Shown in pieces: positions 19,943 to 37,789 of a stretch of 64,000 nucleotides of DNA; position 1 is the stretch's first letter, and the number at the start of each line of letters is the position of its first letter. The stretch comes from Pseudomonadota bacterium. GTDB lineage: Bacteria; Pseudomonadota; Alphaproteobacteria; Rhizobiales; Xanthobacteraceae. The stretch covers positions 1,518-65,517 of the forward strand of contig JAKAPE010000001.1 in the NCBI GenBank assembly GCA_021811945.1, in the 5' to 3' direction. Position numbers and translations under genes: made by a program. The notes beneath the pieces were generated by a model, which did no database searches, was not told the origin of the DNA, and saw only the letters and a program-made list of their open reading frames with translations.

Positions 19943-20995
19943 TTAGCGCTTGGACGAATAGGGCGTCTTGGAAGGAAGGCCCAACGCGTTGACAAGCCTG
20001 TCGTCGTCTGTGTTGGGGGCGTTCAACAAGCCGAGGCTTGCCTTGGGCGGCGCAGGCGGCCAATGCGAGAGAAGACCCCCAACGCCGGGAGCAAGCGGCT
20101 TCTCGCCCAATCCGAGTGCTGAGAGCGCACCAAGACCGAGGTGCGGCTGGGAAGGAGTCGTTGTCCGCGGCCAGTCGCGAACCGTCACGCGCTGGATGGT
20201 CCAGCGCCCGTCCGCCGTGACGTCGATGCGCATTGAACCATCCTTGCGGGTCGTGGCCACGTACCGCCGTTCGTTTGTGACGAAGACCGCGCCAGCGCAT
20301 CGAGTCCGATACCAGTCGTCAGTATCCTGACTGTCGTATTGACGTTGGTCATCCGAGACGATGACAAGCTGCGGCCGGAACAATTCGAACAGTTCGGTGC
20401 AGCAACCGCTGTCCCGGCCATGATGTGAGGCGACGAGTACCGAGACGTTCAGCACGTCCTGGCGGAAATCCTGGAGCGCCAGCAAACGTCGCCAGCCCGC
20501 AACCTCAAGATCGCCCGTGAACAGGATCTTGAACGTGCCGAATTGGGCGATGACCGCGAGGCTGAGATCGTTGGTCTTGTTCTCGGCCCCAGGGACGAAG
20601 AAGGGATAGTACCAGCGGATTTGAACATCCCCGAAATCCGGCTGCGCTCCAGCCAATGGATTTTTCGGTTGGGCAAGCCAAGCCGCGACCGCTTGCGCGC
20701 CGGGTCCCATGCCATCCTTCTTGAGCATCGCGAACTCGCGCGGGCCGACAGTGGGATTGCTGAGAATCCAGGGGACCGTGCAGTCCTGCATCACGTTCTT
20801 GAAGTCGCTCAGGTGGTCCTCGTCGAGATTCATCAGGCCAAGCAGATCGACAGTCTCGCGGAAGAAATGGAGCGAAGGAGTCCAAAAGCGATCTTCACCC
20901 CAACGGTCGCCGCAATCGAGCATCATGCGTCGCCCGTTTGGCGCGGTGAGCATGGCGCATTGGCCGTGACCGACGTTGAAGATTTCAATCCGCAT
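19943..20995 (-). CDS. ComEC/Rec2-related metallo-beta-lactamase-fold hydrolase (copy 2)
   Basis: FNVGHGQCAML..MLDCG, FTGDLE, LVASHHGRDSG, which is the COG2333-like MBL pattern. The start overlaps the patatin stop by 11 nt. Confidence 0.78.
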   Translation of the reverse strand: MRIEIFNVGHGQCAMLTAPNGRRMMLDCGDRWGEDRFWTPSLHFFRETVDLLGLMNLDEDHLSDFKNVMQDCTVPWILSNPTVGPREFAMLKKDGMGPGAQAVAAWLAQPKNPLAGAQPDFGDVQIRWYYPFFVPGAENKTNDLSLAVIAQFGTFKILFTGDLEVAGWRRLLALQDFRQDVLNVSVLVASHHGRDSGCCTELFELFRPQLVIVSDDQRQYDSQDTDDWYRTRCAGAVFVTNERRYVATTRKDGSMRIDVTADGRWTIQRVTVRDWPRTTTPSQPHLGLGALSALGLGEKPLAPGVGGLLSHWPPAPPKASLGLLNAPNTDDDRLVNALGLPSKTPYSSKR

Positions 20996-22199
20996 CGAGA
21001 GTTTCCTCGGCGCAAGACGGGTCGTTGACGAGATGAGGCAGATAGCTGCGAGCCAGGCAGAAGGTCAGTTGCTCCCCGCGCAGGCCGAGGCGCTCTATCC
21101 ATTCCTCCGGCATCGCGTTGAAATCAGTCGGATAGGCGTGTGCTTCCTCGCGGCGCACGAGGTCCGCGGGCGGTTTCGGGAGCTGCCGGTCTTGTTGTCC
21201 AAGATACGGGAACAGGAAAGCTTTGATTTGCCCAGTCCGCTGCGCCTCGTGCAGCCGGTGCATGGCGGCGTTCTGGGCACGATCGAACACCGCGCTGAAG
21301 ACGCTGAGCATGCGCGCGAAGATAAACTGACCTGGCGGATCCTGCCGCAAGCCGTAGCCTGCCGAGCAGCAGATGATCGTGTCAACCGGAACTACGTTGA
21401 GGCTCACGTCCGGCGACCGGTCCGGCCAGAGACAGCCGAGGCCGAGATTGTCGTAGATGCCCCCGTCGGTCAGGATGACGCGGCTATCCTTGAGCGCTCC
21501 GTCCTTTTCGAAGGTCAGCGTCTCGTCGAACGCCGGGAGAAAGAGCGGATAGGCCGCCGAGGCGGCGACTGCGTGGGCCACCGACGCATCGTTGCGGTGT
21601 ATCTTGCCCCAGCGCCAAGATCCCGACTCCATGGTGCCGAAGCGGAACGCCGATCCGGTTCTCAGCTCTGTGGCGTTGATGACGAGATGCGGTTGTGCCG
21701 ACAGGTCCTTCAGGGACGCTCCCTTGAACAAGAGGTCGTCGAAGACCGCTTCGAGCAAGGTGGTCCGGCTCGCGAAGCGATGCAGCGGCGATCGGATCTC
21801 GAAGCGCTCGAAACGCGCCGCGAGCCCCGGGGGCGTGACCCAGCGCGCCACCTTGATCGCCATCTTGATCAAGGTGACGGCGAGCGCGACCAGTCCAATC
21901 ACCACGAAAGCGGCGGCGACCTTGATACCGGTCACGCTGAAAAGCTTGCGGTACATCGGCGCCACAAGTCCTTGGCGGAGCAAGTGGCGGATTTTCGCCT
22001 CGAAGGAGGCGAAGTCGCCGTGGTGGGCGTGGAAATAAGCACCAATTACGCTGCCGCCCGACACCGTCGAGAGAATGGCAACGTGATCGAGAAGTCCGAG
22101 CCGCTTAAGCGCGCGCAGACACCCGAGGTGAAACGCGATGGCGCGCGAGCCGCCGCCCGAGAGGGCGAGGCCGATCCTGGGGGCGACCGCCGCGTCCAT
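20985..22199 (-). CDS. Patatin-like phospholipase
   Basis: Oxyanion GLALSGGGSRAIAFHLG, nucleophile elbow STVSGGS, catalytic Asp LTDGGIYDNLG. A hydrophobic segment (VAAAFVVIGLVALAVTLI) sits mid-protein. Confidence 0.87.
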   Translation of the reverse strand: MDAAVAPRIGLALSGGGSRAIAFHLGCLRALKRLGLLDHVAILSTVSGGSVIGAYFHAHHGDFASFEAKIRHLLRQGLVAPMYRKLFSVTGIKVAAAFVVIGLVALAVTLIKMAIKVARWVTPPGLAARFERFEIRSPLHRFASRTTLLEAVFDDLLFKGASLKDLSAQPHLVINATELRTGSAFRFGTMESGSWRWGKIHRNDASVAHAVAASAAYPLFLPAFDETLTFEKDGALKDSRVILTDGGIYDNLGLGCLWPDRSPDVSLNVVPVDTIICCSAGYGLRQDPPGQFIFARMLSVFSAVFDRAQNAAMHRLHEAQRTGQIKAFLFPYLGQQDRQLPKPPADLVRREEAHAYPTDFNAMPEEWIERLGLRGEQLTFCLARSYLPHLVNDPSCAEETLDAD

Positions 22200-22212: not shown

Positions 22213-23073
22213 TCAGGCCGCGGTGGCCGGCGCGTTGACAGACCTGATAAGGGTCGTCGTCAACTCTGTCGGTCCGGGCTGGGTCAAGAGCGACACGCCG
22301 CCCTCCATGTTGGTCGCAAAGACGTGCTTCGCCACGCGGCTATAGACTTGCAGCGCCTGCGGATGCGGGTGGCCGTACTGGCTATCGACGCCGGCACTGA
22401 TCAGAACCGTGTGCGGGGCGATGTTGACGAGCGACGCCGGATGCGTCGCGTTTTTCGAGCCGTGATGGGGTGCGGCGAGCACGTGTGCCTTCAGCGCGGT
22501 GCCGAAGAGCTTATTGATCCGGTCCCAGCGCGGATTCTCCGTGTCGCCGGTGATGAGGTAGGAGAAGCCGCGAGCACCGAGCCCTGTGAGTTTGAGCACG
22601 ATGCTGCAATTGTTGGAGCAGTCCATGTCCTCGATGTGCGGCGAGAAGAGTTCGAACTCGAACTTGCCCGAGAGGCCGGTCAAGCAGCGGTTGGCGAGTT
22701 GGTCGACGCGCACCGAGACCTTCCTCAAAGGATTGTTGGTTTGCCGGCGCGCCGCCTCCTCGGCATTGATGAGGGCGAAGACGCGCTTCGCCTCGTCGCT
22801 GTCCTTGTAGTATTTGGGGTACATGACCCAGTCCGGGCGGTACTTGCGCAGCACGATCGAGGCGCCCACGATCTCGCTGTGGTCGCTGTCGAAGCCGGTC
22901 AGAATGAGGCCCGTCACGCAATGGTCCTTCAGGGACAGCGCCATGATCTCCTTGACGTAGGCCACGGTGCTGTCATCGGCCGGCGGAATGCGGCAATCGA
23001 CGATGATGGCTTCCTTCTGGTGCCTCACGATCGCGAGCGCGCCTTGGCCGACATTGACCGTGATGATGTTCAT
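22213..23073 (-). CDS. ComEC/Rec2-related metallo-beta-lactamase-fold hydrolase (copy 1)
   Basis: MNIITVNVGQGALAIV..IVDC, ITGDTE, LAAPHHGSKNA. ATG 23073 lies 5 nt after the JAB stop. Confidence 0.78.
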   Translation of the reverse strand: MNIITVNVGQGALAIVRHQKEAIIVDCRIPPADDSTVAYVKEIMALSLKDHCVTGLILTGFDSDHSEIVGASIVLRKYRPDWVMYPKYYKDSDEAKRVFALINAEEAARRQTNNPLRKVSVRVDQLANRCLTGLSGKFEFELFSPHIEDMDCSNNCSIVLKLTGLGARGFSYLITGDTENPRWDRINKLFGTALKAHVLAAPHHGSKNATHPASLVNIAPHTVLISAGVDSQYGHPHPQALQVYSRVAKHVFATNMEGGVSLLTQPGPTELTTTLIRSVNAPATAA

Positions 23074-23996: not shown

Positions 23997-24858
23997 GGGC
24001 CGTGCTCCTCGTGGCGCAGACCGCACACTGCTCCTGCGGGCTGAGCGCGGTGCGTTGCAGGTGAAAATGCTTATTGAAGGGATGGACAGGCCGGTTGCCC
24101 CAGATCAGGTAGTTCTCGTCGATAGGATCGAGGAATTTGGGACGCTCGCCGAGGCGCCTCGCGACGGCGTCGAGGACAAACCGGGTGTGGAACGAGGTGA
24201 TGAAGGTGATGTCCACCGTGAGGCCAGGCGAGTCCTTGATCTCGGCGATCTCCATGCCATAGACCTTCTCGCGCTCCTCGTCGGAGACGAGGTCGATCTC
24301 GCGGATGCCTTGCCGGAAGGGCGTGCGCTGCAACGCCGCTTCGAGGCAGGCGAGGCAGGCGCCCTCTGGCGGACGGTAGGCGAAGACTTCGCCGCCGATG
24401 CCGCGGGTGAACACACGGCCGACCACGAACGGAACGCCGTGGCGGATGCACATCTCGTTGATGGTGTAGCGGGTCGGCTCGTTATCGGTGGCGAGCACCA
24501 CCACGTCGGCCTTCACGATCTCGGCGGCGAGGCCGGGATAGTTCATGATGTCCGCGTCGATCTTGGCGATGCTGGCGTTCGGGTTGCGGTCGTGCAGCAC
24601 GTCGGCGACGGCGTCGGTTTTCTTCTGGCCGATGTAGCGGCGGCCGCAGACATGCCGGATGACGTTCTCCGGCCCGAGGATGTCGTTGTCGATCAGCGTG
24701 AAGTTGCGGATGCCGGACATGACGAGCTGGAGCGCGACGCTGGCGCCACCGGAGCCGCAGCCCGCGATGAGGACGTTCACGTTGGCGAAGGCGGCAATGT
24801 CGAACAGCGTCTCGATGCGTTCGAAGGTGCGGTCGGTCATGGCGCGGTCAGTCATCAT
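23986..24858 (-). CDS. ThiF/MoeB/E1-like adenylyltransferase
   Basis: Rossmann motif VLIAGCGSGGASVALQLVMSGI..TLIDNDIL, conserved R/D adenylation residues, and two CxxC pairs (CLAC ... CAVC) as in the ThiF/MoeB zinc site. The ATG overlaps the upstream TGA (ATGA). Confidence 0.87.
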   Translation of the reverse strand: MMTDRAMTDRTFERIETLFDIAAFANVNVLIAGCGSGGASVALQLVMSGIRNFTLIDNDILGPENVIRHVCGRRYIGQKKTDAVADVLHDRNPNASIAKIDADIMNYPGLAAEIVKADVVVLATDNEPTRYTINEMCIRHGVPFVVGRVFTRGIGGEVFAYRPPEGACLACLEAALQRTPFRQGIREIDLVSDEEREKVYGMEIAEIKDSPGLTVDITFITSFHTRFVLDAVARRLGERPKFLDPIDENYLIWGNRPVHPFNKHFHLQRTALSPQEQCAVCATRSTAHAV

Positions 24859-25382
24859 GCATCCGTCCTTTCCGGCCATTCGCCGGTCTTGCACCACTTG
24901 GCGTAGTGTTTGAGCCAGACCCGTGCGAGGCCGAGAGCGTGGCTGACGTCGTGGGTCTTGACGTTCCAAGCCGTCGTCGCGCCGAAGATCGAGAGCGCGC
25001 CGTCCGGCCAGCGCTGCGGGGCGTTGGACGCGACCTGCGCGGCGTAAATCCGCGGCGCGGAATTGGGGTAGCCATGCGGCAGCACGATGCTGACGATGAT
25101 GTTCTCGCCGGCGGCTGTTTCCGGGCAACTGATCTCTAGTTCTTTGCTCTCATTGATCGTGAGCTTGTAGCTCTCCTTCTTGCCGTCGAGCTTGGCGAGC
25201 TCTTTGGCGATGCGGTCGGGGGCGATGTCCGGCAGCAAGAAGGAGACCGGCACGAGGCAGGCCTTTGGCTGGCCGTTGCGCTCGACGACGAAGACCTCGC
25301 CGTCCCGCGCCACGCGGTCGAGAACCTCGCCCGGGGAGCTGCGCAGCTCCATCATCTTCAAGGTCTTGAAATCGACTTTCAA
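24855..25382 (-). CDS. Phd/YefM-like N-terminal domain fused to an E2-variant (UEV-like) domain
   Basis: The N-terminus ELRSSPGEVLDRVARDGEVFVVERNGQPKACLVP resembles Phd/YefM antitoxins. The C-terminus LPHGYPNSAPRIYA...DGALSIFG...W is paralogous to the neighbouring E2 but has Ser where the E2 Cys sits. Start is TTG 25382 or ATG 25355. Confidence 0.6.
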   Translation of the reverse strand: MKVDFKTLKMMELRSSPGEVLDRVARDGEVFVVERNGQPKACLVPVSFLLPDIAPDRIAKELAKLDGKKESYKLTINESKELEISCPETAAGENIIVSIVLPHGYPNSAPRIYAAQVASNAPQRWPDGALSIFGATTAWNVKTHDVSHALGLARVWLKHYAKWCKTGEWPERTDA

Positions 25383-25781: not shown

Positions 25782-25955
25782 TCAATACTCGCCGCCGAGG
25801 TTTTCTTTCATCGTCAGCGGCTTCTTGTTGCCGAGCTCGGACGACGTGGTCTGACCGATCTGTCGAATCTCGCCGTTCGGCAGGATCTGGATCGGGATGT
25901 CCTCCTCGCTGTTAAGGAGCCGCTCCAGCTCGTCGATTTTGGACTGTTGGCTCAT
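25782..25955 (-). CDS. 57-aa protein ending ...ENLGGEY; candidate ubiquitin-like modifier/tag
   Basis: Strong RBS (GGAGGGAAGGA-ATG). First gene of the operon. The C-terminal Gly-Gly is followed by two residues. The stop lies 8 nt before the E2 start. Confidence 0.5.
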   Translation of the reverse strand: MSQQSKIDELERLLNSEEDIPIQILPNGEIRQIGQTTSSELGNKKPLTMKENLGGEY

Positions 25956-26004
25956 TCCTTCCCTCCAAGGGCACGACACGACTCACGAGCTAATACAATT
26001 GCAC

Positions 26005-26032
26005 ACCCTACAACGGTTGCGCATAGAGTCAA
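26005..26032 (-). promoter_or_regulatory. Possible sigma70-type promoter of the Ubl operon (TTGACT-N16-TAGGGT)
   Basis: Minus-strand TTGACT (26032-26027) and TAGGGT (26010-26005), about 50 nt upstream of ATG 25955. Pattern match only. Confidence 0.25.
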
Positions 26033-26202
26033 TTTAAGATTTGGGGGGGGCGGGCGCTGATGGCTACCAGATAGGGGGGGTGCGGATCCGCCGCCAGCCG
26101 TAAGCGCGAAACTTGTTCCGGCCGGGAACTTGCGCCAAGGCACCGGAGTGCGCTCGGTTTGAGTATTGTTCTCGCGGCGGCGGGACGAACGAATGTCTGG
26201 CC

Positions 26203-26449
26203 ATGATCTATTACGTCGGGTCGCCCTTCACTGAGGTCGAAGGTGGCCTCGCGCCCGGCCAGGCCGTCGAGTGCTTGAGCAACGCCACCGCAATCGGCGC
26301 GCCGAGGCGAGGGCCGCGAACCAATGCAATGCCGGTGCCGTCGCCTTCTCCCGCAGCGGCGACCTCAATTTCGGCGAGTTCGAGACACCGTCATCCTTAA
26401 GACCTTCGGCGAGGTGCCCGAGGATTTCACCAGACCGCCGACGGCATGA
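26203..26449 (+). pseudogene. Decayed small ORF read through three frames
   Basis: Protein-like segments continue across two frame changes: MIYYVGSPFTEVEGGLAPGQAVECLSNATAIG / NAGAVAFSRSGDLNFGEFE / DTVILKTFGEVPEDFTRPPTA-stop. This resembles a small conserved rhizobial plasmid/island protein from memory only. Confidence 0.3.
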
Positions 26450-26623
26450 TCTACCGCAAGGGCGAGCTATCGCCAGCGATGATCAATCGCGGGTGCGCGC
26501 ACGCGAAACGATCAGCAAACCCCTCGCAATTGACGATGGTCTTGCCGCTGTAGTCCGGGTCGACCTGAGCGATATGACGGCCCGGTGCGGTATCGGCCGA
26601 ATGCACTCCTAAGAACCCGAAGA

Positions 26624-29600
26624 TTAGGAGACGGCCAACGTGGAATTCACCATCTCGAGATAGCGGCAGAACGCGTTCGCCAACTGAATCTGCCGCGGCG
26701 TCCGGCACTCCGTTTCGAATATCTGCGGTGAGCCGACGAGGACCGATACGCATTTGGCGCGCGAAGTCGCAACATTGAGCCGGTTGAGGCTGTAGAGGAA
26801 CTCCATTCCGCGCGGCGCGTCCGCATGGCTGGAAGTGGCCATCGAATAAACTGCGATCGGAGCTTCCTGCCCCTGGAACTTGTCGACCGTGCCCACGCGC
26901 GCACCCGACAGGCATTGCTGAATCTCGAAGACCTGCGCGTTGTAGGGCGTGATGATAACGATGTCGTCGAGCGTGATCGGCTTCTCTTGCCCTTCGCGAT
27001 CGACCCAAGTCGCCTTGCTCGCGAGGATCGCCCGCACGAGACGCGCGACCGCTTGTGCCTCTTCAGGCGAGCAGTTCTGATTGCCGCTGTGTGCGACAGG
27101 GAGAAGGTAGAGACCAGACCCGCTGACCGGTCCGGACCCTTTGATGACCAGCTTCTCTAGCCCGGTCTTCGAGCGGAGCTTGCCGTCATAGAAGACCTCG
27201 GAGGTGTAGGCGCAGATCGCAGGATGCAGCCGCCAGGTCTCTTCGAGAAACAGGCCCTTATCCGCAGAAATCGTCCGCTCGCCGCCGAGAATATGATCGA
27301 GCGCCGACACATCGGTGCCCTCCGGGTGGCTGCCTTGCATCGGCTGATCGAGTTGCTGCGGATCGCCGATCAGCACCACCGTCTTCGCCGCCTGCGACAC
27401 GGCAAGCACGTTGGCGAGCGACATCTGCGCGGCTTCGTCCACGAAGAGAACGTCGACCGTCTCGAACGTGTCCGGCCGCGACCACAGCCATGCCGTGCCG
27501 CCGCCGACCGAGGCGCCGCCGCTCAATGCCGCGAACAAGTCCTCATTTCTCTTGGCGAAGAAAAGGCGATGCTGCGGGTCTTCGACCTCATCGGCCTTTT
27601 GGCAGCATTGCAGGTCGATTCCCAATTCGTCGGCCGCCTTGATCGTCGCATCGATCAGGTTGCGAATGACCTTATGACTGTTGGCCGTGATGCCAACTTT
27701 CTTCCCACGGCGCACCAGCTCGCAAATCATCTGCGCACCAGTGAAGGTCTTGCCCGCACCGGGCGGTCCTTGGATCGGGAGAACGCCGCCCGCCACGTGG
27801 CCGCACAGCCGAACGGCGGCTTCAACCGTCGTCTCTCCGGCGCGGTGCAGCGGCTCATCGCCGACGCGCGGGCTTCCTCTGAGCAGGAGATCGCGCGCCG
27901 CCTGATAAGGCCCATCGCCCCGTACGCCGTGATCGGCGACATAGTCGCCGATCCGCACCAGCGCCTCGGCCATCACTTGGCCGCCAACATAGCTGTGGGC
28001 GAACGCGGCTTGCGGATGGAGGCTGGCGGTATCCTGGCGCTTCTTGATATCGACGGTGTTGTCTGCAAAGGAGATCACCTCGACCTTGCCGAGTTTGGCG
28101 CCGCCGAGATTGCAGAGTTCCTCGCCGCCGCGAATTTCGGTCTCCTGCGGCGGGAAACGGTAACGATGGATCGGCGCCTTGGCTGTGCCGCCGGCCGTGG
28201 CGGCAAAGATAAGACCGGAGAGTCCGGCGCGCTCCTCGAGTAGATCCTCGGCCGAGAGAGCGGCCAGCCGGAAATACTCCCACCACACCGCCTTCTCTTC
28301 CCGGCGATGCCAATCAACAATGTTTGCCAAGATCCAACGGGCCTGCTGCTCCTCATTCCGTTCGGTGGGATCCACCGGAACATCCGCCGTCAGTCTTTCG
28401 ATTAGCGCATTGATCTTGACCAGCCAGTCGGTGATCTTCTCGTTCGGCGCACCGTCACCAGGTTGCGGTCGAGGCACGACTGTTCCATCAGCGACCAGCT
28501 TCGTCCGGTGCGCTTCGAGCCAGTCGCGCAAGACCACGGTGGAACGGCAATCATCCTCGTTGTAGGCGCGCACCACTGCCTTGGTCTCTTCGGCAATTGA
28601 CGGCGCATCGCTGAGCTCGATATTGGCCTGGAGATTGGCGAGCGCGACATTCGCATCGGTCAGTGGCGTTTGACGTTCGAAGCCATAGAGGGGCTCCAAC
28701 CGCTTGATCGAATAGCTTTCGACGCTTGCACGAAGACTATGGCGCACGACTTGATAGAGATCGACGAAGAGGCCGGCGCGGAGCATCCGGTCGATCTCCT
28801 CCTCGCGCGTCGCGTAGCGGCCCATCAGGCGCTTCAGGGCCGCCGGCTCATAGGGAGCGTAGTGGTAGACGTGCAGGCCGGGGAACAGAGCCCACCGCGT
28901 CATCACAAAATCGACGAACTTTTCAAAGGCGCGCTTCTCGTCGGCGCGGGTGAAAGCCCAGTCGCCCTCGTAGACGAGCGCGCCGTGTGCGTCCTTGAAC
29001 AGATAGCCGACCAGATATTCGAGGCCATGCTCGCCGACAAATGGATCGCCTTCGAAGTCAAGAAACACATCGCCATCAGAAGGCTCGGGCAGACGGGTGA
29101 GCCCGAAGCCGGTCTCCACCGGCAGCAGCTCGAATATGCGAGTCCCTGCTGTGCGGGCCTCGACCACGATCCGCGCCTGCTCGCGGATGCGGATATAGGA
29201 ATCGGCCGAACCGCGATCGGGCTTCCACTCGAGCGGCAAGGGCATGCCGGCCAAACCTTGTACCGTCGCGACATCGCGTGCCTTCAACTCATTGATCTGA
29301 ATCTTCGAGATGCCGGCAACGAGGCAGAGATGATCGTCATCGCGGCGACGCTTGTCGCAAGCCTCTCGCCAACGGCAGATATCGCAATGCTCGATTGGAT
29401 CGGGGTAGGTGTCATCTGTCGCCGGCGCGGCCATGGCCGTCAGCAACCCGCGCTTCACCTTTCGGAAATACGCCGCATAGTCGGCGAAGCGATATTGCTG
29501 CGGCTGAAATTCCGACCACGGCGCGACGACGTACATGTATTCGGGCGGAAGTCCCTGCATGGCGGCCAGCAGGTCGGCGTAGAGACAGAGCTGGAGGATC

Positions 29601-30031
29601 GTTCCGGCTTTCGTTTCGCGTGCGAGCTTCGTGTCGACCGGCTCATAGGACCAGCCGCCCAGCGCGCTCGGTACTTCGACGCGGCGCAGGATGTCGGCGC
29701 GTCCGTTCCAGCCCTGATGCGCGAGTGCTGCCTGAGCGATGACCGGAACACCGCGCTGCATGATGGCGCGCGTCTCAGCGACGGCCCCGTGCGTGACTTC
29801 GACACCGTCGATCCGCACGGCGTCCAGCCCTGCGGTGGTGAGGTGCTCTATGTAACTCTGCTCATGGGCTATCCCGCGTTCGGCCAAGATCTGCAGAAGG
29901 GGGTCCCAGACCTTCGGCTTCGATAACGCCCCGTTGGCCACCGCGCGGTCCAGACCCGTGAGATGATGACAATTCAGGTAGCCGACTAAGTCGGTCGCGC
30001 TGAGCTCGAAGGACTCTCCGACCTTTTTCAT
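26624..30031 (-). CDS. RecB/Cas4-like nuclease + RNaseH-like domain (TM0106-type) fused to an SF1 (DNA2/Upf1-like) helicase, 1135 aa
   Basis: N-terminus has GRADIL...YEPVDTKL (PD-(D/E)xK) with [10 protein letters not shown], then DFEGDP (RNaseH-like). C-terminus has [38 protein letters not shown] helicase motifs. Confidence 0.88.
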
Positions 30032-30939
30032 GTGGTTTGAAAGCTTAGGTCGCGCACGGGAATGTACGCGCGGTTAGTTTCAGCAGCACGGCGCGCCTTT
30101 TCCTCGAGCACTGCAATGAGCGAAACGCGCCGCGATAGCACCTCATACAAATCCAGCCCGTCGACGCAGATGAGGTTCGTCTGACGGCCACGGCTGAATG
30201 CCTCCAGGCCCTCCTGGGTGAATCCTGAGTTGCTGACAAATAGGCCGCGCGCCCACGCCGCCTTGCCCGAGACTTTGCCCGAAAACGCCATCAGGTCGGC
30301 AAACCCAATCTGTGGCCCATGCCACTTGGCTTCGACCAGGTAGGTTTCCGTGTGCAGCCGAAAGCTCCCGTCAATCTGCTCTCCCACGATACGGAAGGAA
30401 CCACGGGGCGCCAGACCGAATGCGGCAAATATATCCGAGAGAAAACTTTCAAACCTCAGGCCTCTTTCTTGTGGGCTTAGGTTCGATATCTCGATCAAGC
30501 GCGCAATCAACGTCTGAGCGGCCGCCTCTGCCAACATTGGCTCGGGCGCAGTGCGTTCAGTCTTCGGCGGCTCGCCGAAGGTCTTCAAGAAGGCTGGATC
30601 GAGAAGCTCCGGAATCCTGAAAGACACGCCCGGCAGCGCCGCGTTCAATCGATCAATTTCATCGCGAGTCAGCGGATTACCCTTGCCCCGGCGCCAAGTC
30701 ATCGATTGGTGGACGATGGCGATCATCAACGGTGTGAAACGGTTCCGGCGATATTCCAGCGTTCGCTTCAGGAGCTCGACAATTGCCGGCCGCTTACTCC
30801 CAGAAGTCCAGAACTCACCGACACCGGCTTGGGCAGCAGCAAGCGGAAAAGCAGTCTTGTTATTGCCGCTTCCTGGCAGGAACTCATAGAGAATATCTGC
30901 GATATTCTCGATGGCCTGCGCTTCCGCGAGCGACAACAT
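30028..30939 (-). CDS. Mrr-like restriction endonuclease domain protein with an unknown N-terminal domain
   Basis: C-terminal half [12 protein letters not shown]...GEQIDGSF...YLVEAKW...[10 protein letters not shown] fits the Mrr_cat PD-(D/E)xK pattern. The stop overlaps the helicase ATG (ATGA). Confidence 0.72.
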
Positions 30940-30942
30940 AGC

Positions 30943-32055
30943 TCAGTCCTCCGACGAAACGAGTCTGAGCGGTGGCCGCGAGCGGCTTCGATCGCCGCTG
31001 TTGGGAATACCGTTGAGGCTGGTCAACGCCAAGCCGAACACTAGTTCATCAATATCTTTGGGGTGGACACGCAGCGCCTCTGCGACCTCCTCCTTGCTGA
31101 TTCCTTCCTTTCGGAGCGCCGCGAACACCTTTTGCAGCACCTGCGAGATCTCACGGGGCCCGCCCTCCGGCTCTTTTTTACGGAACCCACGCGACGACAT
31201 CTCGATATAGAGCTGGCGATAGTGCCATTCAGACAGAAGATCGAGTTTATGGAGCCGGTACGTCATCGCCGCCAGTGATACGCCCCAAACCTTTTTGAGC
31301 CGCATGAGATTGTCGATGGTGGCAAAGCGCGGCGCGTGGGCACGCACACTGGCTGGCGGCATCAGCAATGCGGACGCGAACGCGTTGGCATCCTGCTCGG
31401 CCTCCTGACCATTCGGCGCGGCGTGCCGATGCAGAACCAAATGTCCCAGCTCGTGGGCGGCATCGAACCGTCCATGCTCGGCCGACTTGAGCGTGTTGAG
31501 AAAGACAAAGGGGCGATCTCCTCGCCACATGGAGAATGCGTCAACCTCAGCAGCATCAATGGCGAGTGAGTAGACGCGCACGCCTTTCGACTCGAGCAGA
31601 TGCACCATGTTTTTGATCGGCAGTTCTCCCAACTCCCACGCACGACGTACCGCCGCCGCCGCCGTTTCGGGACTTGCATCACGACCGAGATCTGGCAATT
31701 GGGGCGCGGGCAAATCGAAGCGCGTTTCGATCCATTCGTTGAGCAGCATTGCCACAGCGCCGTTACCGAGCGCGGTGTCGCGTTGGCGCGCCGTCATCTT
31801 CGACAAAGACCGAAAGCTCGCCGTGTCGATCGCCGGCTCCTCGATATCGTCACCAAAGAAAAACGCCTGCGGAAAGTTCAGCGTGCGAGCAATGGTCGCC
31901 AACCGCTCAGGCTCCGGATTAAACTCACCCGTCTCGTAGGCTGAAACCGATCGCAACTCTACGCCGATACTCGCGGCGAGGCGGGTCTTGGTTAGTCCGC
32001 GTCTCCGACGAGCCCAGGTAAGGCGGGTGGGATTGAAGGCATCAACGACTGTCAT
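30943..32055 (-). CDS. XRE-family HTH fused to an ImmA/IrrE (COG2856) zinc metallopeptidase
   Basis: N-terminal HTH (RRGLTKTRLAASIGVELRSVSAYETGE) and HELGHLVLH (HExxH) in the central domain. Confidence 0.87.
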   Translation of the reverse strand: MTVVDAFNPTRLTWARRRRGLTKTRLAASIGVELRSVSAYETGEFNPEPERLATIARTLNFPQAFFFGDDIEEPAIDTASFRSLSKMTARQRDTALGNGAVAMLLNEWIETRFDLPAPQLPDLGRDASPETAAAAVRRAWELGELPIKNMVHLLESKGVRVYSLAIDAAEVDAFSMWRGDRPFVFLNTLKSAEHGRFDAAHELGHLVLHRHAAPNGQEAEQDANAFASALLMPPASVRAHAPRFATIDNLMRLKKVWGVSLAAMTYRLHKLDLLSEWHYRQLYIEMSSRGFRKKEPEGGPREISQVLQKVFAALRKEGISKEEVAEALRVHPKDIDELVFGLALTSLNGIPNSGDRSRSRPPLRLVSSED

Positions 32056-32696
32056 GCCTTTCGCTTCACATCGATATCGAGATCCGGCCCCACGGGCGCC
32101 ACGATTTCAACCTCGGCGCCGTCCAACGGGATCGATGGCAGCATGATGCGTTCCTGCCAGCGCGTGATCCGGCCGTCCGCCGAAATCTGCGACGGCAAGG
32201 ACAGTTCGCAACGCACCTCAGAGCCGGCACGGTGGAGAAGCAAAAACCAGGTCAGCGGACCCTCATCGCCCCGCACATGCGGCATGTCAGGAACCGGCAA
32301 ATCCAATTCGAGCTGCACCTGATTTACCGAGATGGCGTCTGCCGTGCTAACGCCCTTCGGCGCCCGGTTGCTGACATTGGCGGTTGGGATCCCCGTCCCC
32401 ATGTCGCCGGAAGCAATATTGATCGCCATCGACCCATCAGGGTGGATCACCAGGGCGTAGTTCTTCTCGTCTGACCGCGTCCAGCCAAGCGGCAGCAAAC
32501 CTTCCCGCAGCGCCGCAACTGCTTCCATCCAAGCCGCAATGCCGATGGCGAAGGGCGGGTGATTTATGGTGAAGCTTACCCAGGACAAATACCAACGCTG
32601 CGCCGCGTGCGCGAGAGGCTCATCGGTCAGCCCCATGGCGGCCAACCGGGCCTTCACGTCATCGGCATCTATGTACACGGACAGGGGCGCAGCCAC
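32052..32696 (-). CDS. Hypothetical protein (214 aa), first gene of the XRE-ImmA/Mrr/helicase operon
   Basis: GTG 32696 is preceded by GGAGAA. The stop overlaps the next start by 4 nt. No motif was recognised. Confidence 0.55.
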   Translation of the reverse strand: MAAPLSVYIDADDVKARLAAMGLTDEPLAHAAQRWYLSWVSFTINHPPFAIGIAAWMEAVAALREGLLPLGWTRSDEKNYALVIHPDGSMAINIASGDMGTGIPTANVSNRAPKGVSTADAISVNQVQLELDLPVPDMPHVRGDEGPLTWFLLLHRAGSEVRCELSLPSQISADGRITRWQERIMLPSIPLDGAEVEIVAPVGPDLDIDVKRKA

Positions 32697-32726
32697 TGGA
32701 TTCTCCGGGGAAGGGGCAGGTTCCGC

Positions 32727-32754
32727 TTTTTCTACCTCAAATGAGGGAGAAAAA
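32727..32754. promoter_or_regulatory. AT-rich 13-bp-arm palindrome TTTTTCTACCTCA-AA-TGAGGGAGAAAAA (one mismatch)
   Basis: Read directly. It lies 31 nt upstream of GTG 32696 and about 70 nt downstream of the res stop. It is a candidate operator or terminator. Confidence 0.3.
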
Positions 32755-32823
32755 CAAGAACCTCGGCCTCCTCCAATTGGGCTGTATTCCCCCGTCGCTA
32801 CCTGCCCCGGGGCGGAGCGTCCT

Positions 32824-35800
32824 TCAAAGCCGGTCCATCACGTCGTCGACGTTCCTCGCTTTGATATATCGTGCCGGATTCTTCCCAACAGCCAGCGCCT
32901 GGAAATGCGCCTCCCCGCAAGCGATCTTCGCCGCCTCATTGTCGCGCAGGTCGTCGACAAACATGCTGCCTTTGGTCTCGACAACGAAATACAGGCGCTC
33001 TTCGCCACTGACTTCAATAAGCACCGCCCAATCCGGGTTGTAGGTCCCGAGCGGTGTCGGCACTTTGAACCACGCCGGCAGCTTCGCGTAGATTCTCACC
33101 GCCTCATTTTTTTCGAGTTGTTCGGCGAACGTTCGTTCGACGCCGCCAGAGTCATAGACGACATGCTCGAAAACGGACTTCTGCGCGTCCTTCAGCATGT
33201 TCCGTAGATAGCCTGTAAGCTCCTCTTGCGAAAACAGCTCTTGCGCATAGTAGTATTCGTCACCGATCCGCTGGTACTTGATGCCGTCGACAATGGCCAA
33301 TCGCTTGGTCCGATTGATTACTTCTCCTGCAATCTCGATAAACGCCTGCGGGTTGCGCTTGAAATCCGTCAGGCGGCCGCACTCAGTTAGAACCCGGACC
33401 AGACTCTTGCGGGTTAGCTGAGTTCGATCCTGAAGATCGGTCAACACATCCGGCAGGACGATATCGCCTTCCTCGATCGTGACGATCGTTCCGCTGTTCT
33501 TGTCATGCTCCGTGGCTTCAACGCCGCCCTGACCAATTGAAAGATCCGCCTTTCTGATCCGAACGCGCGCTTTCGACACCGGTGGACCGTTGGCGATGGC
33601 CTTCGCGCAATCTGCGATCAGCTTCTCGTTGTCGAAGTGAACGCGATAGGTGGTCTTGTGCTTGATCCGGTCCCAAAGCGCCTGAAACTCGGCGCTTTCC
33701 AGAATGGCTTGCCGCGTTTTGACGACGACGCGCTCATCGGCGTTCTTGATATCCAGCTTGCCGGCCACCTTCTTTAGGACGTCGCGCACCGACGCCAAGT
33801 GCGGCGCCGGCGCCGGCGGCAGGGCGAAGGATCCGTCTTTGAGCGCGGTGCGCAGAGTGTCCTGCACCTTGCCTTTGGCGTCGACGAACCCTTGCGATCT
33901 CAGATGATCGAAGATGGCCGCCGACTCTTCGAAGCCCAGCATGCCGGTTGATCCGTCCGCCTTGACGATCGGTATGGCCGCGAACTGATGCTTCTCGACT
34001 ATGCCGAACTTGATTCCCGTATCCTTCTCAATTTCCTTCTGCAGGTTTTCGGCGAACTCCTCGTAGCTCTCGGTGGCGATCACGGTCAGGGTGTTAATGT
34101 CGAAGCCGCGAAGGCGCTCGCCCTTCTGGTTTACGCAAAGGCGCAGACCGCGACCGATCGTTTGTCGTCGCTCGCGCTCAGTACCGATTTCACGCAGTGC
34201 GCAAATCTGAAACACGTTGGGATTGTCCCAGCCTTCCTTCAGGGCCGAGTGTGAGAAGATGAACTTTAGCTTCGTCTCGAAGCCCAGAAGCTTCTCCTTG
34301 TCCTTCATGATCAGATTGTATGCGCGCTCCGCGTTATCGCGAGCTGATTGGGTATTGTCTGCCGTGTCGGTCCAGTGCCGGGCTTTGTCGATCGAAAAAT
34401 AACCATCGTGGACCTCCTCGGCCTCGGACGTCAAATCGACCTCCTTAAACAGGCTGACAAACTCGGGAAGCTTCGCTGCGCGGCGATACTCCTCCTCGAA
34501 AATCCGGGCGTATTTGCCCTTCACAGGGTTCCCGTCGGCGTCATAGGACCGGTAGTGCTCGACCGCGTCGATGAAGAACAGACTGAGCACCTTGATGCCA
34601 AGGGGCGCGAGGCGCTTTTCCTTCTCAAGATGCTCGTGGATTGTCCTGCGCAGCATCAGCCGCTTCAGCGCATCCGCGTCCACATCGCCCACGGCCTGGC
34701 CGGGCTGGAGAAATGTCTCGCTGCCGGGCAGCTTCACTTCCAGAAGCTGGCTGTCGCGCCCAGCGCGAATCTCGCCGATCCGGCAGTCCGCGTAGATAGC
34801 CCGCTTGGTCAGTTCCTCCAGGTCATCGCCGTCCTGAACGACCACCTCTTTGCGCCGGACTTGCTTGCTCTCCAGCACGTCGATTTCAACGCGGGCGGTC
34901 ACCGGCCCTTTGCCGTTGCTCGCCGAGACGAAACGGACGTAGGCCTTGTTGTGGCCCCCTTCGACTTCCAGCGAGGCGACCTCGATCTGCTTGACCAGCT
35001 TGCGCTCGTAGGCGTCCACAGCATCGAGCCGGAAAACCATGTGGTGTTTGTCGACATGAGTCGCCGAATAGCGGAGCGTGCAGAGCGGATTCATCTCGCC
35101 AAGCGCGTTCTTGCCGGCGCCAGATAGGCCGCCATCGACACTTTGCGGTTCATCGACGATCAGTATCGGCCGTGTCGCACGGATCAAATCGATGGGCCGC
35201 TCGCCTCCGGTCTTCTCACTGTCCTTGTAGAGGTTGTTGACGTCCTTCTTGTTGATGGCGCCGACGGTCACCACCATGATCTGAATGTTCGGGTTGGTCG
35301 CAAAATTGCGCACCTGGCCGAGCTTCGTGGAATCATAAAGGAAATAGTCGAACGGCTGGCCCGAATAGAGCCCCCTGAAATGCTCCTCCGTGATCTGGAG
35401 CGTCTTGTAGACACCTTCCTTGATGGCGACCGAGGGTACGACGATGACAAATTTGGTGAAGCCATATAGCTTGTTCAGTTCGAAGATCGTCCGCAGATAG
35501 ACGTAAGTTTTGCCCGTACCGGTCTCCATCTCGACCGTGAAATCGCCGGAGGTTAGCGCGGTTGATGGGGCAAGGCCATTGCGGAGCTGAATGTCCTTGA
35601 GGTTAGCCATGATCTCGTCATCCAGCAGGGTCAGCCTGTTGCCGATGCCGAGCTCGCTTTCGACCAACCCTAATTCGCCTTGCGGGCCAAGAAACGCGCC
35701 GAGATCAAGGTCAGTCTGACCGGTCCGTTCGGCCATAGGCCTGCGGATTACAGTGAATTCGGTTCGGTTGATCTCCTGCCCGCGGAAGAGGCCAGCGACG

Positions 35801-35853
35801 GCCTCAATCGCCGCCTCCTGATAATCAAGGTCGGGCTCAAAGTGCAGCTTCAT
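32824..35853 (-). CDS. res: Type III restriction enzyme, Res subunit (SF2 helicase + C-terminal PD-(D/E)xK)
   Basis: METGTGKTYVY (motif I), ILIVDEPQS (DExQ), QTIGRGLR (motif VI), and C-terminal PDWAVL...VVETKG endonuclease motif. ATG 35853 is preceded by GAGG. Confidence 0.9.
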   Translation of the reverse strand: MKLHFEPDLDYQEAAIEAVAGLFRGQEINRTEFTVIRRPMAERTGQTDLDLGAFLGPQGELGLVESELGIGNRLTLLDDEIMANLKDIQLRNGLAPSTALTSGDFTVEMETGTGKTYVYLRTIFELNKLYGFTKFVIVVPSVAIKEGVYKTLQITEEHFRGLYSGQPFDYFLYDSTKLGQVRNFATNPNIQIMVVTVGAINKKDVNNLYKDSEKTGGERPIDLIRATRPILIVDEPQSVDGGLSGAGKNALGEMNPLCTLRYSATHVDKHHMVFRLDAVDAYERKLVKQIEVASLEVEGGHNKAYVRFVSASNGKGPVTARVEIDVLESKQVRRKEVVVQDGDDLEELTKRAIYADCRIGEIRAGRDSQLLEVKLPGSETFLQPGQAVGDVDADALKRLMLRRTIHEHLEKEKRLAPLGIKVLSLFFIDAVEHYRSYDADGNPVKGKYARIFEEEYRRAAKLPEFVSLFKEVDLTSEAEEVHDGYFSIDKARHWTDTADNTQSARDNAERAYNLIMKDKEKLLGFETKLKFIFSHSALKEGWDNPNVFQICALREIGTERERRQTIGRGLRLCVNQKGERLRGFDINTLTVIATESYEEFAENLQKEIEKDTGIKFGIVEKHQFAAIPIVKADGSTGMLGFEESAAIFDHLRSQGFVDAKGKVQDTLRTALKDGSFALPPAPAPHLASVRDVLKKVAGKLDIKNADERVVVKTRQAILESAEFQALWDRIKHKTTYRVHFDNEKLIADCAKAIANGPPVSKARVRIRKADLSIGQGGVEATEHDKNSGTIVTIEEGDIVLPDVLTDLQDRTQLTRKSLVRVLTECGRLTDFKRNPQAFIEIAGEVINRTKRLAIVDGIKYQRIGDEYYYAQELFSQEELTGYLRNMLKDAQKSVFEHVVYDSGGVERTFAEQLEKNEAVRIYAKLPAWFKVPTPLGTYNPDWAVLIEVSGEERLYFVVETKGSMFVDDLRDNEAAKIACGEAHFQALAVGKNPARYIKARNVDDVMDRL

Positions 35854-35863
35854 CGAACAGGCC

Positions 35864-37789
35864 TCACAAGCTGCGCACGTCGGAGATGCCATTCTGGTTC
35901 AGGATCGCTGCCATGTTTGTCTTAGCGATATCATCCGTGATCCCTGAATCCTTGAACACGACGCGCGTGTCAGCCGCAGGCGCGAGTTCCGCGCGCCATG
36001 CAATAATGCCAGCACTGAGCGGCTCAATTACCTCCTTCGTTAGACCATCGGCGAGGCAAACTACTAGCACGCCTCCACCAATGGAATGGACCGCCTTCCC
36101 TGCAATGCTTCTCGTTTCGATCGGCACGCAGAGGTCGAGGCCGAGTTTGAGCAAAAGCTCATAGAGCACATCATCCTCGGCGCGACCTTGGACGAGATGC
36201 TCCGTGTTCTTCAGAAGGCTGTTCTCTATGTCATCTGGATCGGGCTCCCACGCGCGGATGTTCGAGGATGCAAGCTTAAAGACACGAAAGCCCGAATCAC
36301 CTTTGAAGAGCGGATTTTCTTCATCGACCCGTTTTGCAGAACGCCGGAGACGCTCTTTAGTCAATTCAGAAATTTTGCGCGGCAACTTCAATTTGTCACA
36401 AAAATCGGCCGCAACTTTCTGTTCCCTGTTGCTTGGGTCGAGCGGCTCGGGGAGCTGCACAAGCATATAGCGTCGCTTAACGCTTTCCGCAGCATTCTGC
36501 TTCAGCACCGCATGCCCTGTTGTCCCGGAGCCCGCAAAGAAGTCTAGGACTATGTCTCCATCCGCAGTGACCTGCTCAATAAGGCTTGCGATCAGTTCCG
36601 TCGGCTTCGGAAAGGCAAAGAGATCGACATCGAATAGTGATCGAATTTCCTGCGTACCGTCGGCTGTGTGAATTCCATCAATGATCGATCGGAACGCGAT
36701 AAACTCGGCGCGCATTTCATTGCGAAACTTCTTTTCGCGCGGCCTTCCTTGGTCGTTCTTAGGAAAGAGCACCTTACCCGCGGATATCAGTTCCGCCATT
36801 TTTTCCCTCGAGTAGCGCCATCCCGTTGAGGCATTCGGAGGGAACACCCGGCCTGTAGACGGCTCCACGATATCATAGTGGAGATTTGGCCGCTGATCGC
36901 GCGTGGCAAGACCGAGCATGCTCCGGCTCATCCAATCTCCACGCGGATCGTTATCAGGATTTCCAAACTTAGATTCGTCCCGCCCTACCCCCTTTAGAGA
37001 GAATCCGTCGTCCCTCGCATAAGCTAAAATGTATTCATGGTCAGTCGATATATTCGTATTCGCACGAGCGTCGGTGAATTGACGTGCTTTCCAAACGAAC
37101 TGCGCGACGAAATTTTCTTCGCCATAGATTTCATTCAGCATCAATCTAAGATTGGCCACTTCTCCGTCGTCGCATGAGACAAGGATGACACCATCGGGGT
37201 GGAGAAGATTCCTCGCCACCTTCAGTCGGGGATACATCATATTCATCCAGTCGGTATGAAATCTGCCGGATGCGTCGGTGTTGGAGCTGATTCTACGCCC
37301 GCCCTCTATCTGCCCGGTCAGCTCAAGATAGTTTTTGATGTTGTCGCTATATTTATCGGGATAAACAAAATCCTTACCAGTGTTGTACGGCGGATCGATG
37401 TAGATCAGCTTCACCTTTCCCGCAAAGCTCTTTTGCAATAGTTTCAGGACCTCAAGGTTGTCGCCTTCGATCAGTAGGTTCTGGGTCGTATCCCAATCTA
37501 CGCTCTCCTCCGGGCACGGAAGTAGCGTGCCGGTCGACGGCGTCAGTGCAATCTGCCGCGCACGACGCTTACCGTGCCAGTTGAGCCCAAATTTTTCATC
37601 GCGGCGATCAATCGATGAGCCGAGTAGCTCTCTCAACACGTCGAAATCGACCTGTCCTTCACCGAAGGCCTCAGGAAACAGCACCTTCAACGTCTCCAGG
37701 TTGGCGGCAACCAGATCAGCGCTCTTGGTCTCTGGGGCGTTCCAGTTCAATTTCTTGATTCCCGTCATCGGCGTCTGTTCCATGGTCAA
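35864..37789 (-). CDS. mod: Type III-like site-specific DNA methyltransferase (Mod, N6-A/N4-C beta class)
   Basis: IEGDNLEVLKLL...IYIDPPYNTG (motif IV) precedes VLDFFAGSGTTGHA (motif I), the beta-class order. Confidence 0.9.
   Translation of the reverse strand: MTMEQTPMTGIKKLNWNAPETKSADLVAANLETLKVLFPEAFGEGQVDFDVLRELLGSSIDRRDEKFGLNWHGKRRARQIALTPSTGTLLPCPEESVDWDTTQNLLIEGDNLEVLKLLQKSFAGKVKLIYIDPPYNTGKDFVYPDKYSDNIKNYLELTGQIEGGRRISSNTDASGRFHTDWMNMMYPRLKVARNLLHPDGVILVSCDDGEVANLRLMLNEIYGEENFVAQFVWKARQFTDARANTNISTDHEYILAYARDDGFSLKGVGRDESKFGNPDNDPRGDWMSRSMLGLATRDQRPNLHYDIVEPSTGRVFPPNASTGWRYSREKMAELISAGKVLFPKNDQGRPREKKFRNEMRAEFIAFRSIIDGIHTADGTQEIRSLFDVDLFAFPKPTELIASLIEQVTADGDIVLDFFAGSGTTGHAVLKQNAAESVKRRYMLVQLPEPLDPSNREQKVAADFCDKLKLPRKISELTKERLRRSAKRVDEENPLFKGDSGFRVFKLASSNIRAWEPDPDDIENSLLKNTEHLVQGRAEDDVLYELLLKLGLDLCVPIETRSIAGKAVHSIGGGVLVVCLADGLTKEVIEPLSAGIIAWRAELAPAADTRVVFKDSGITDDIAKTNMAAILNQNGISDVRSL

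Follow-up and report, generated by a model that had tools for sequence, protein, structure and literature searches.

A 57-residue protein with an invariant LGGEY end as a possible substrate of a bacterial ubiquitination-like cassette

The window analysed here is a stretch of 64,000 nucleotides from a bacterium of the Xanthobacteraceae (assembly GCA_021811945.1, contig JAKAPE010000001.1, positions 1,518 to 65,517). On its minus strand, a tightly packed operon opens with the gene of a 57-residue protein which ends in LGGEY. The next genes encode a ubiquitin-conjugating enzyme (E2), a second E2-like protein with a Phd/YefM-like domain (hereafter Phd-E2-like), a ubiquitin-activating enzyme (E1), a JAB/JAMM peptidase (JAB) and a metallo-beta-lactamase-fold (MBL) hydrolase, MBL1. 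We tentatively propose, at a little less than an even chance, that the 57-residue protein is the dedicated substrate ("tag") of the ubiquitination-like cascade of this operon, that it does not have a beta-grasp fold and that its reactive end is Tyr57. Genomic context supports the tag interpretation well, without proving it. It is supported because the synteny of the small gene with the cascade genes is nearly obligate and is recovered by a reverse test, because the small protein is the only member of the cassette with a conserved C-terminal motif, because the enzymes look active, and because the small module is found fused to the E2. Neither the family nor the cassette was found described in literature searches or in the Pfam, NCBIfam, PADLOC and PHROG libraries.

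The small protein, its family and its cassette

The open reading frame (ORF) runs from an ATG at 25955-25953 to a TGA at 25784-25782 and encodes MSQQSKIDELERLLNSEEDIPIQILPNGEIRQIGQTTSSELGNKKPLTMKENLGGEY. The ORF list contains an alternative GTG eight codons upstream of the ATG; the homologues begin at the ATG. A Shine-Dalgarno-like sequence, GGAGGGAAGGA, abuts this start, and 61 of 79 homologous loci have a match of at least 4 nucleotides ahead of theirs. The DNA is rich in G+C and the 14 kb around the gene hold 124 ORFs of at least 40 codons. The length of the ORF is therefore uninformative, and the case for a gene has to come from conservation. The relatives of the protein fall into 445 clusters when grouped at 90% identity; at 50% identity there are 334 representatives, 153 of them below 1e-10. 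Compared with 45 homologous genes of equal length, the differences at codon positions 1, 2 and 3 number 731, 451 and 1277, respectively, and 758 codon changes are synonymous. Based on these relatives, on the third-position bias of the differences and on a strictly kept gene order, the sequence comparison indicates that the gene is real and under purifying selection. The homologue of Mesorhizobium sp. AR10 is already called by RefSeq (WP_258600245.1, "hypothetical protein"). An earlier note on this DNA had taken the ORF for a real one and for the first gene of an E2/E1/JAB operon, which conservation and gene order confirm.

The family consensus is x-P-T-I-x-E-L-E-x-[IL]-L-x-x-E-E-D-x-x-I-[EQ]-I-L-P-N-G-E-[IV]-R, followed by 12-25 variable residues and by K-P-L-T-[MFL]-[RK]-E-[ND]-L-G-G-E-Y. 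Among diverse representatives at 50% identity, G28, G54 and Y57 are invariant, and L14, I24, P26, N27, E29, P46, T48, E51, L53, G55 and E56 are conserved in at least 90% of the sequences.

The AlphaFold2 model (121 sequences; predicted local distance difference test, pLDDT, of 72) consists of a helix (residues 3-14), a hairpin made of strands 22-24 and 30-32, possibly a third strand around KPLT, and then a low-confidence tail. The helical N-terminus and single beta-hairpin guessed in the earlier note match this prediction, and its suspicion that the protein is too short for a full beta-grasp is borne out by the predicted shape. The protein matches no model of Pfam or NCBIfam (E<=0.1), PADLOC or PHROG, a search of PDB sequences with the family profile gives no match even at E<=10, and Foldseek finds nothing below E=0.4 for the model in PDB and BFVD. 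Since Foldseek gives nothing better, a beta-grasp, a Pup-like fold or any other known fold is unsupported. A beta-grasp in particular was considered and rejected: the model shows one helix and a hairpin of two strands ahead of a disordered tail, which is not a beta-grasp, and there is no Foldseek, PDB or Pfam match to proteins of that fold.

Some 150 loci, from bacteria and metagenomes and spread over more than 10 phyla, keep the order small protein, E2, Phd-E2-like, E1, JAB, MBL. A genomic scan, made by pattern search with one genome per species, gives 80 loci from Alphaproteobacteria, Acidobacteriota, Planctomycetota, Omnitrophota, Elusimicrobiota, Gemmatimonadota, Verrucomicrobiota, Myxococcota, Nitrospirota, Gammaproteobacteria and one metagenome-assembled genome (MAG) of Methanosarcinales. 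Directly downstream of the small gene and in the same order, the E2 is found in 79 of these 80 loci, the E1 and the JAB in 76 each, and MBL1 and the Phd-E2-like gene in 71 each. The shortfalls are mostly at contig ends, and the Phd-E2-like gene is lacking in four loci (L042, L058, L066 and L071). The operon occurs in the same order in 64 of 80 loci of a metagenome scan. Conversely, when the search starts from the Phd-E2-like protein, a called gene of 56-57 codons precedes the E2 on every contig that has room upstream. The earlier note had made its proposal depend on the presence of the ORF in homologous operons, and it is present there. A tblastn search of plasmids returns one record, pMspAR10a of Mesorhizobium sp. 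AR10. The archaeal MAG carries the full cassette (L020, 10001-13718: small protein, E2, Phd-E2-like, E1, JAB and MBL), which is due either to horizontal transfer or to a binning error.

The catalytic His and Cys of the E2, the nucleotide loop and zinc motifs of the E1 and the JAMM motif of the JAB are conserved across orthologues, and the three enzymes look active as far as their sequences tell. Orthologous E2s carry the Pfam domain PF26395 ("E2-CBASS") in precomputed matches, as do the fusion proteins described below and the C-terminal domain of the Phd-E2-like protein. The assignment of the window E2 itself to PF26395 comes from these orthologues. The modelled E2 superposes on UBE2W, UFC1, Ubc9 and the E2 bound to CdnG of Serratia marcescens (8yjy_B; Foldseek, template modelling score of 0.51). 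Human UBE2W, which modifies N-termini, is its closest solved relative by sequence and fold (PHRYQGGHICY versus PHVYSNGHICL). The pairing of this E2 with a Cys-less E2-like protein is reminiscent of the pairs formed by Ubc13 and ubiquitin E2 variant (UEV) proteins.

E1s of the MoeB/ThiF type carry their catalytic Cys between the two CxxC zinc motifs. In 76 orthologues of the window E1, no Cys is conserved in this region, which contains a conserved EIKDSPGL instead. To judge from the sequences, the activity of this E1 may be limited to adenylation; alternatively, a Ser may stand in for the Cys, in the manner of the oxyesters of Bub enzymes.

This set of E1, E2 and JAB has no other candidate substrate in the cassette, which makes the small protein the only plausible dedicated one. 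The MBL hydrolase was considered as the substrate, as has been proposed for the 6A-MBL system, and was rejected because the C-terminus of MBL1 is unconserved across 71 orthologues. A search of plasmids with MBL1, made for the comparison with 6A-MBL, gives only generic ComEC-like proteins.

In at least six diverged proteins (P0181 and P0391-P0395), found by a search with a fused sequence, the small module is joined to the E2, which starts 1-7 residues past GGEY. These proteins are 51-60% identical to the query fusion, P0181. In three loci (L199, L201 and L202) such a fusion opens an operon that is complete in all other respects, with genes for the E2-like protein, ThiF, JAB and MBL behind it. 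The JAB product of L201 and L202 (7921-9696) has 591 residues, about twice the usual length, apparently through an added domain. The fusions parallel two known cases: the BubAB fusion, which is cut by its JAB domain (PMC11601596), and the fusions of cyclic nucleotide synthases (CD-NTases) with an E2 that have been noted in CBASS, the cyclic-oligonucleotide-based antiphage signalling system (PMC12948482). They also mean that LGGEY can precede a peptide bond, which would need cleavage if a free carboxylate is required.

The C-terminus and the position of the reactive end

Gly54, Gly55, Glu56 and Tyr57 are all invariant or nearly so, and conservation ends after Tyr57. Among 150 representatives, 15 end at this Tyr; the others continue for 1-28 unconserved residues or, in rare cases, with a long extension, and the first residue past the Tyr is usually Ala, Gly or Ser. 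In the 80 genomic loci, 24 copies stop exactly at the Tyr, including that of the window, and the rest have 1-14 extra residues, with a peak at a length of seven, at which the frame reaches the beginning of the E2 gene. A homologue that bears such a tail ends in ...LGGEYGRRGKLS. No copy among about 300 inspected ends at Gly-Gly.

In many loci, the reading frame simply continues into the overlapping start of the E2 gene, so that the tails look incidental; the comparison suggests that they are. If the conserved part is taken as the mature product and the unconserved part as what is removed, the functional end is at Tyr57. The mature, reactive end is thus probably ...LGGEY-COOH, as judged from conservation, in which case the copy of the window is made ready and needs no trimming. 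This pattern fits the enzymology of the nearest relatives. Cap3 recognises what precedes the scissile bond, and its cut falls exactly behind the last conserved residue; Cap2 adenylates the CdnD of Enterobacter cloacae at ...TGRFA, which shows that an E1 of the Cap2 type does not need a terminal Gly (10.1101/2022.03.31.486616).

The earlier note had seen in Glu-Tyr a disposable extension like that of ubiquitin precursors. Its expectation of an invariant Gly-Gly holds, but that of a variable tail made of Glu-Tyr does not, since Glu56 and Tyr57 are as invariant as the glycines and variability only begins after them. The idea of a minimal tag that is trimmed at the C-terminus accordingly stands in part: the operon and the flexible, Gly-containing end agree with a tag, and the conservation disagrees with the trimming of Glu-Tyr.

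A tag with Gly55 as its reactive end is nevertheless the strongest of the alternatives, although we consider it doubtful. The JAB, or the E2 itself as in E2-CBASS, would first remove Glu-Tyr and the tail, and the Glu-Tyr cap would keep the tag inert until then. This would account for the invariance of Gly-Gly and for the constant presence of a JAB in the cassette. It also has a precedent in the QbsE/QbsD pair. QbsE is a ThiS-like carrier which ends in Gly-Gly plus two residues (QbsE-GG-CF), and these are removed by the JAB of its operon (QbsD) before adenylation by the E1; it is a beta-grasp sulfur carrier of siderophore synthesis, with no E2 and no protein conjugation. The characterised relatives all end in a small residue: Gly in ubiquitin, Bil and Bub, Gly436 in DncV and G397-G398 in S. 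marcescens CdnG (PMC12948482; 10.1101/2022.03.31.486616). Moreover, SmE2, which belongs to the same Pfam family as the E2 discussed here, cuts off a C-terminal green fluorescent protein while it forms its adduct (PMC12948482). On the other hand, Glu-Tyr is as invariant as Gly-Gly across phyla and in phage copies, and the stop codon directly follows the Tyr in 30% of the genomic copies and never Gly-Gly. JAB and Cap3 read the residues before the cut and must cut isopeptide bonds to lysine, so that invariant P1' and P2' residues are unexplained by known enzymology (10.1101/2022.03.31.486616). A cap that is always required would also be unique among ubiquitin-like families, whose tails differ from member to member and whose genes in some cases already code for the mature protein.

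Relation to known systems and possible function

Five types of operons with E1, E2 and JAB were described by Iyer et al. in 2006 (Table 1, rows 6a-6e); row 6a, an E2-E1-JAB fusion with an MBL, is the later 6A-MBL defence system, row 6b is type II CBASS and row 6e is Bub (PMC1779556). The cassette has the same set of E2, E1, JAB and MBL domains as 6A-MBL (NF058523/NF058524), and the best PADLOC matches of its E1 and JAB are the CBASS E1-E2 and JAB models. The scores stay far below the cut-offs of the NCBIfam models NF058523, NF058524 and NF050170 (60.3 and 46.3 versus 320, 36.7 versus 220 and 30.3 versus 200 bits). The substrate of type II CBASS is a disordered tail and not a beta-grasp, and its end may be a residue other than Gly (CdnD, ...GRFA). 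In this respect, the statement of the earlier note that a substrate without a beta-grasp would be unusual for an E1 and an E2 was too strong, as Cap2 of CBASS and the enzymes of E2-CBASS, which are the nearest relatives of the enzymes encoded here, use the tails of cyclases (10.1101/2022.03.31.486616; PMC12948482). Unlike in 6A-MBL and type II CBASS, the E2, E1 and JAB are separate genes in the window, as they are in those homologous loci in which they could be placed, and the cassette has two additional proteins, the inactive E2 with its Phd domain and the small protein. The substrate of these two systems is the conserved C-terminus of the CD-NTase or, as proposed for 6A-MBL, of the MBL, whereas here there is no cyclase and the end of MBL1 is not conserved.

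A closer parallel is found in E2-CBASS. The last 47 residues of S. marcescens CdnG (352-398) form a helix, a three-stranded sheet and a tail that ends in Gly; this module recruits the E2 and becomes covalently bound to it (PDB 8yjy/8hsb; PMC12948482). The 57-residue protein resembles it in that a helix, a hairpin and a flexible tail with Gly are predicted, and in that it is encoded beside an E2 of the PF26395 family. C-terminal extensions are removed during the reaction of E2-CBASS, in which fusions of the cyclase and the E2 exist, like those of the small protein and the E2. In contrast to the CdnG module, the 57-residue protein is free-standing and not the tail of an enzyme, and the cassette encodes no cyclase or nucleotidyltransferase; E2-CBASS itself has neither the E1 nor the JAB present here. 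CdnG ends in Gly-Gly and has three strands; the small protein ends in LGGEY and is predicted to have two. By analogy of architecture and context, we take the small protein to be related to the C-terminal module with which CBASS cyclases recruit an E2, but free-standing.

As in Bil and Bub, the gene of the presumed modifier comes first, E2 and E1 have genes of their own behind it and a JAB is also encoded, in defence islands or on mobile elements. The JAB of Bil and Bub cuts pre-proteins and fusions of the modifier with the E2 (BubAB), and Bub also has an E1 without a catalytic Cys. Row 6d, matched by gene content, is presumably the closest to the later Bil operons. In contrast to both systems, the small protein has no beta-grasp and ends in LGGEY, and the cassette adds the Phd-UEV protein and the MBL hydrolase. 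The E2 keeps its Cys, unlike that of Bub. Compared with ubiquitin, ThiS/MoaD, BilA and BubA, the small protein shares the presence of its own E1, E2 and deconjugating peptidase encoded alongside (about 150 loci), and it lacks both the beta-grasp and a Gly-Gly that is terminal or followed by a variable tail.

The protein also resembles Pup and UBact, being about 60 residues long, largely disordered and without a beta-grasp, with an acidic helix and a Gly-Gly-Glu near its end. Pup is ligated through the side chain of its terminal Glu by PafA, an enzyme of glutamine-synthetase fold, and is delivered to the Mpa-proteasome. Unlike Pup, the small protein has an invariant Tyr after this Glu, which is thus not terminal; it has no match to the Pup family of Pfam and its operon encodes neither a PafA- or Dop-like ligase nor the Mpa-proteasome. 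The label "Pup-like" used in the earlier note is therefore unsupported in the sense of family membership.

Homologues are also found at 17 distinct loci on viral contigs of IMG/VR (among them L081-L090, L093, L097-L100 and L103; e.g., L086 10001-10171 and L089 9986-11053). None has an E2, E1 or JAB nearby, and LGGEY is invariant in them. In L086, L087 and L089, the homologue directly follows the portal gene, with scaffold and capsid genes next in L086 and L089. Others sit among small early genes near helicases, and one viral contig of 82.8 kb has two copies. In the metagenome scan, orphans account for 12 of the 80 loci and often end in ...GGEYAA or AVA. Two further proteins encoded on phage-like DNA (L107 5905-6135, and P0411 at L200 6001-6438) have a Phd/YefM-like domain fused to the module, or to its hairpin and LGGEY tail; the inactive E2 of the operon begins with a Phd domain of this kind. 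In P0244, a Lar restriction-alleviation domain is fused to the module. A tblastn search with the window protein and a phage-type copy gives no match in 50,697 GenBank phage records, so that the link to phages comes from the IMG/VR contigs only. The simplest reading of the phage copies is that they may be decoy tags which jam the host cascade. Alternatively, they may have a structural role in phage heads, and the host system may mimic a phage protein.

The steps which we infer for the tag would be as follows. The small protein would be made of a docking module (the N-terminal helix and the ILPNGEIR hairpin), a flexible linker of about 15 residues with the conserved Lys44 and Lys45, and a tail that closes with the invariant motif PLT-x-[RK]-E-x-LGGEY. 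The helix-hairpin module would bind the pair formed by the E2 and the UEV-like protein, and the ThiF-type E1 would then adenylate the C-terminal carboxylate of the tag. The acyl group would be passed to Cys81 of the E2, maybe directly, since the E1 shows no conserved Cys in its crossover loop. It would finally be transferred to an amine of a phage or host target or, assisted by the inactive E2, to Lys44 or Lys45 of a second tag. UEV proteins assist Ubc13, and the inactive E2 would take the same part. In homologues, the Cap3-like JAB would cut away an unconserved tail or a fused E2; it would also reverse the conjugation. Conjugation would direct or license the MBL hydrolase and, where present, the patatin, which are the likely effectors, in phage defence.

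The complete picture would be that of a free-standing mini-modifier of about 57 residues, without a beta-grasp, activated at a C-terminal Tyr by a Cys-less E1 and conjugated by a UBE2W-like E2 and a Phd-tethered inactive E2, in a phage-defence cassette which controls an MBL hydrolase and against which phages deploy decoys, some fused to Phd or Lar domains. Such a system would be intermediate between the tail conjugation of CBASS and a dedicated ubiquitin-like protein. We think it rather unlikely that all of these elements are correct together.

Several points weigh against a tag that reacts at Tyr57. To our knowledge, a bulky C-terminal Tyr is without precedent for the E1 of a conjugation cascade, the known ends being Gly or Ala. 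The reactive end in E2-CBASS, whose E2 family is the closest, is Gly-Gly. The E1 has no obvious catalytic Cys. LGGEY is as invariant in the phage orphans, which have no E1, E2 or JAB nearby, as it is elsewhere, which leaves room for a role of the motif that has nothing to do with adenylation. The small protein has no detectable sequence or Foldseek similarity to the C-terminal module of CdnG, although 8yjy was in the library. In the AlphaFold2 model of a natural fusion (P0393), the E2 is confident, but the small module has a pLDDT of 61-71 and is not confidently docked on it. Lastly, sequence and predicted structure establish the gene, its family, the synteny, the conservation pattern, the fusions and the prediction of a shape other than a beta-grasp; every enzymatic step, the identity of the reactive residue, the targets and the role in defence are inferred.

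Some of these points would rather suit a small protein that acts as a non-covalent or E2-bound regulator or adaptor. It could be a pseudo-substrate sitting on the E1, E2 or UEV-like protein and holding the MBL hydrolase or the patatin off until infection, much as CdnG is held by the E2 in E2-CBASS, or a mimic of a phage protein that serves as a sensor. We regard this as unlikely, even if the phage orphans (three of them directly after portal genes), the fusions to Phd-like domains and the absence of a conserved catalytic Cys in the E1 point in this direction, and even if the covalent link between the E2 and the cyclase in E2-CBASS is itself regulatory and does not tag third parties (PMC12948482). 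A regulator does not explain why a complete and apparently active set of E1, E2 and JAB would be kept with no other candidate substrate in the cassette. Moreover, the invariant, flexible end with Gly-Gly and the recurrent fusion to the E2 are hallmarks of covalent substrates, and decoys of a tag would account for the phage orphans just as well.

It is very improbable that the protein is the precursor of a ribosomally synthesized and post-translationally modified peptide, whose C-terminus would be modified by a ThiF enzyme akin to MccB or PaaA before maturation by the peptidase and the MBL: MccB, which adenylates the C-terminus of a 7-residue peptide, is the second-best solved relative of the E1, and the cluster does consist of a small peptide, a ThiF enzyme and a peptidase, but an E2 with a catalytic Cys and a second E2-like protein, which have no role in such pathways, are always present, the conserved cassette has no exporter, transporter or immunity gene, the entire peptide is conserved and not merely a core, and the operon sits among restriction and helicase-nuclease genes.

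Setting in the window and implications

The coordinates of the operon and of its upstream elements are collected in Table 1. The JAB that the earlier note placed in the same operon is there, and has a C-terminal domain of unknown function. The patatin and MBL2 genes (19943-22199), the latter corresponding to the PADLOC candidate system PDC-M48B, form a variable add-on beside the six-gene cassette; across the 80 genomic loci, their matches are weaker and less regular.

Table 1. Features of the operon and its upstream region (positions in the window)
Feature	Position	Strand	Remarks
Candidate operator region: promoter-like TTGACT-N17-TAGGGT, then near-palindrome GTGCAATTGTATTAG	25985..26035	-	Layout conserved across phyla
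Shine-Dalgarno-like GGAGGGAAGGA	25956..25966	-	Match in 61/79 homologous loci
Small protein, 57 aa; putative modifier/substrate	25782..25955	-	Helix, hairpin ILPNGEIR, flexible linker with conserved KKPLT, LGGEY end
E2, 126 aa	25393..25773	-	Conserved His73 and Cys81; matches at the level of UQ_con / Prok-E2_B
Phd-E2-like, 175 aa: Phd/YefM-like N-terminal domain and C-terminal E2-like domain without catalytic Cys (UEV-like)	24855..25382	-	
E1, ThiF/MoeB-type, 290 aa	23986..24858	-	GCGSGG, two CxxC pairs; ThiF family 2e-31
JAB/JAMM peptidase, ~305 aa	23079..23996	-	Intact E...HxH...S..D motif; weakly Cap3-like
MBL1, ComEC/Rec2-type MBL-fold hydrolase	22213..23073	-	Conserved cassette member
Patatin-like phospholipase	20985..22199	-	Variable accessory gene, beside the cassette in a subset of loci
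MBL2, second MBL-fold protein	19943..20995	-	Variable accessory gene; PADLOC PDC-M48B, 4.8e-55

A non-coding gap of 670 nucleotides (25956-26623), with runs of G at about 26044-26080, separates the operon from a helicase-nuclease gene; Rfam and terminator scans of this gap find nothing. The window as a whole has no tRNA genes and no Rfam matches. A simple sigma-70 scan finds no promoter, and the TTGAC-N17-TAnnnT element is visible only when the equivalent positions of the 80 genomic loci (L001-L080) are compared. An exact CAATTG is present in 19 of 79 upstream regions, compared to 3.8% of control windows. The candidate operator GTGCAATTGTATTAG is perhaps bound by the Phd domain of the 175-residue protein.

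The upstream neighbours (26624-35892) encode a protein of 1135 residues with PD-(D/E)XK, RNase-H-like and superfamily 1 helicase domains, an Mrr-type nuclease, a regulator with XRE and M78 (IrrE-like) domains, an unknown protein of 214 residues and an enzyme of type III restriction-like character that includes an endonuclease domain. The operon is thus set in a defence island.

The analysis defines a widespread six-gene cassette, which was seen in an archaeal MAG and across more than 10 phyla of bacteria, mostly from soil and peat. The invariant Glu-Tyr past Gly-Gly points either to a new type of reactive end or to a new, obligatory cap. Conjugation of the small protein, if it takes place, would make it the first modifier without a beta-grasp that is dedicated to an E1 and an E2, and it might provide protein engineering with an enzymatically ligatable tag of at most 57 residues. 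The phage orphans suggest that decoy tags are used as a counter-defence. If the proposal is true, the family would be a bridge between CBASS enzymes with conjugated tails and true ubiquitin-like proteins, and would make the origin of protein modifiers testable.

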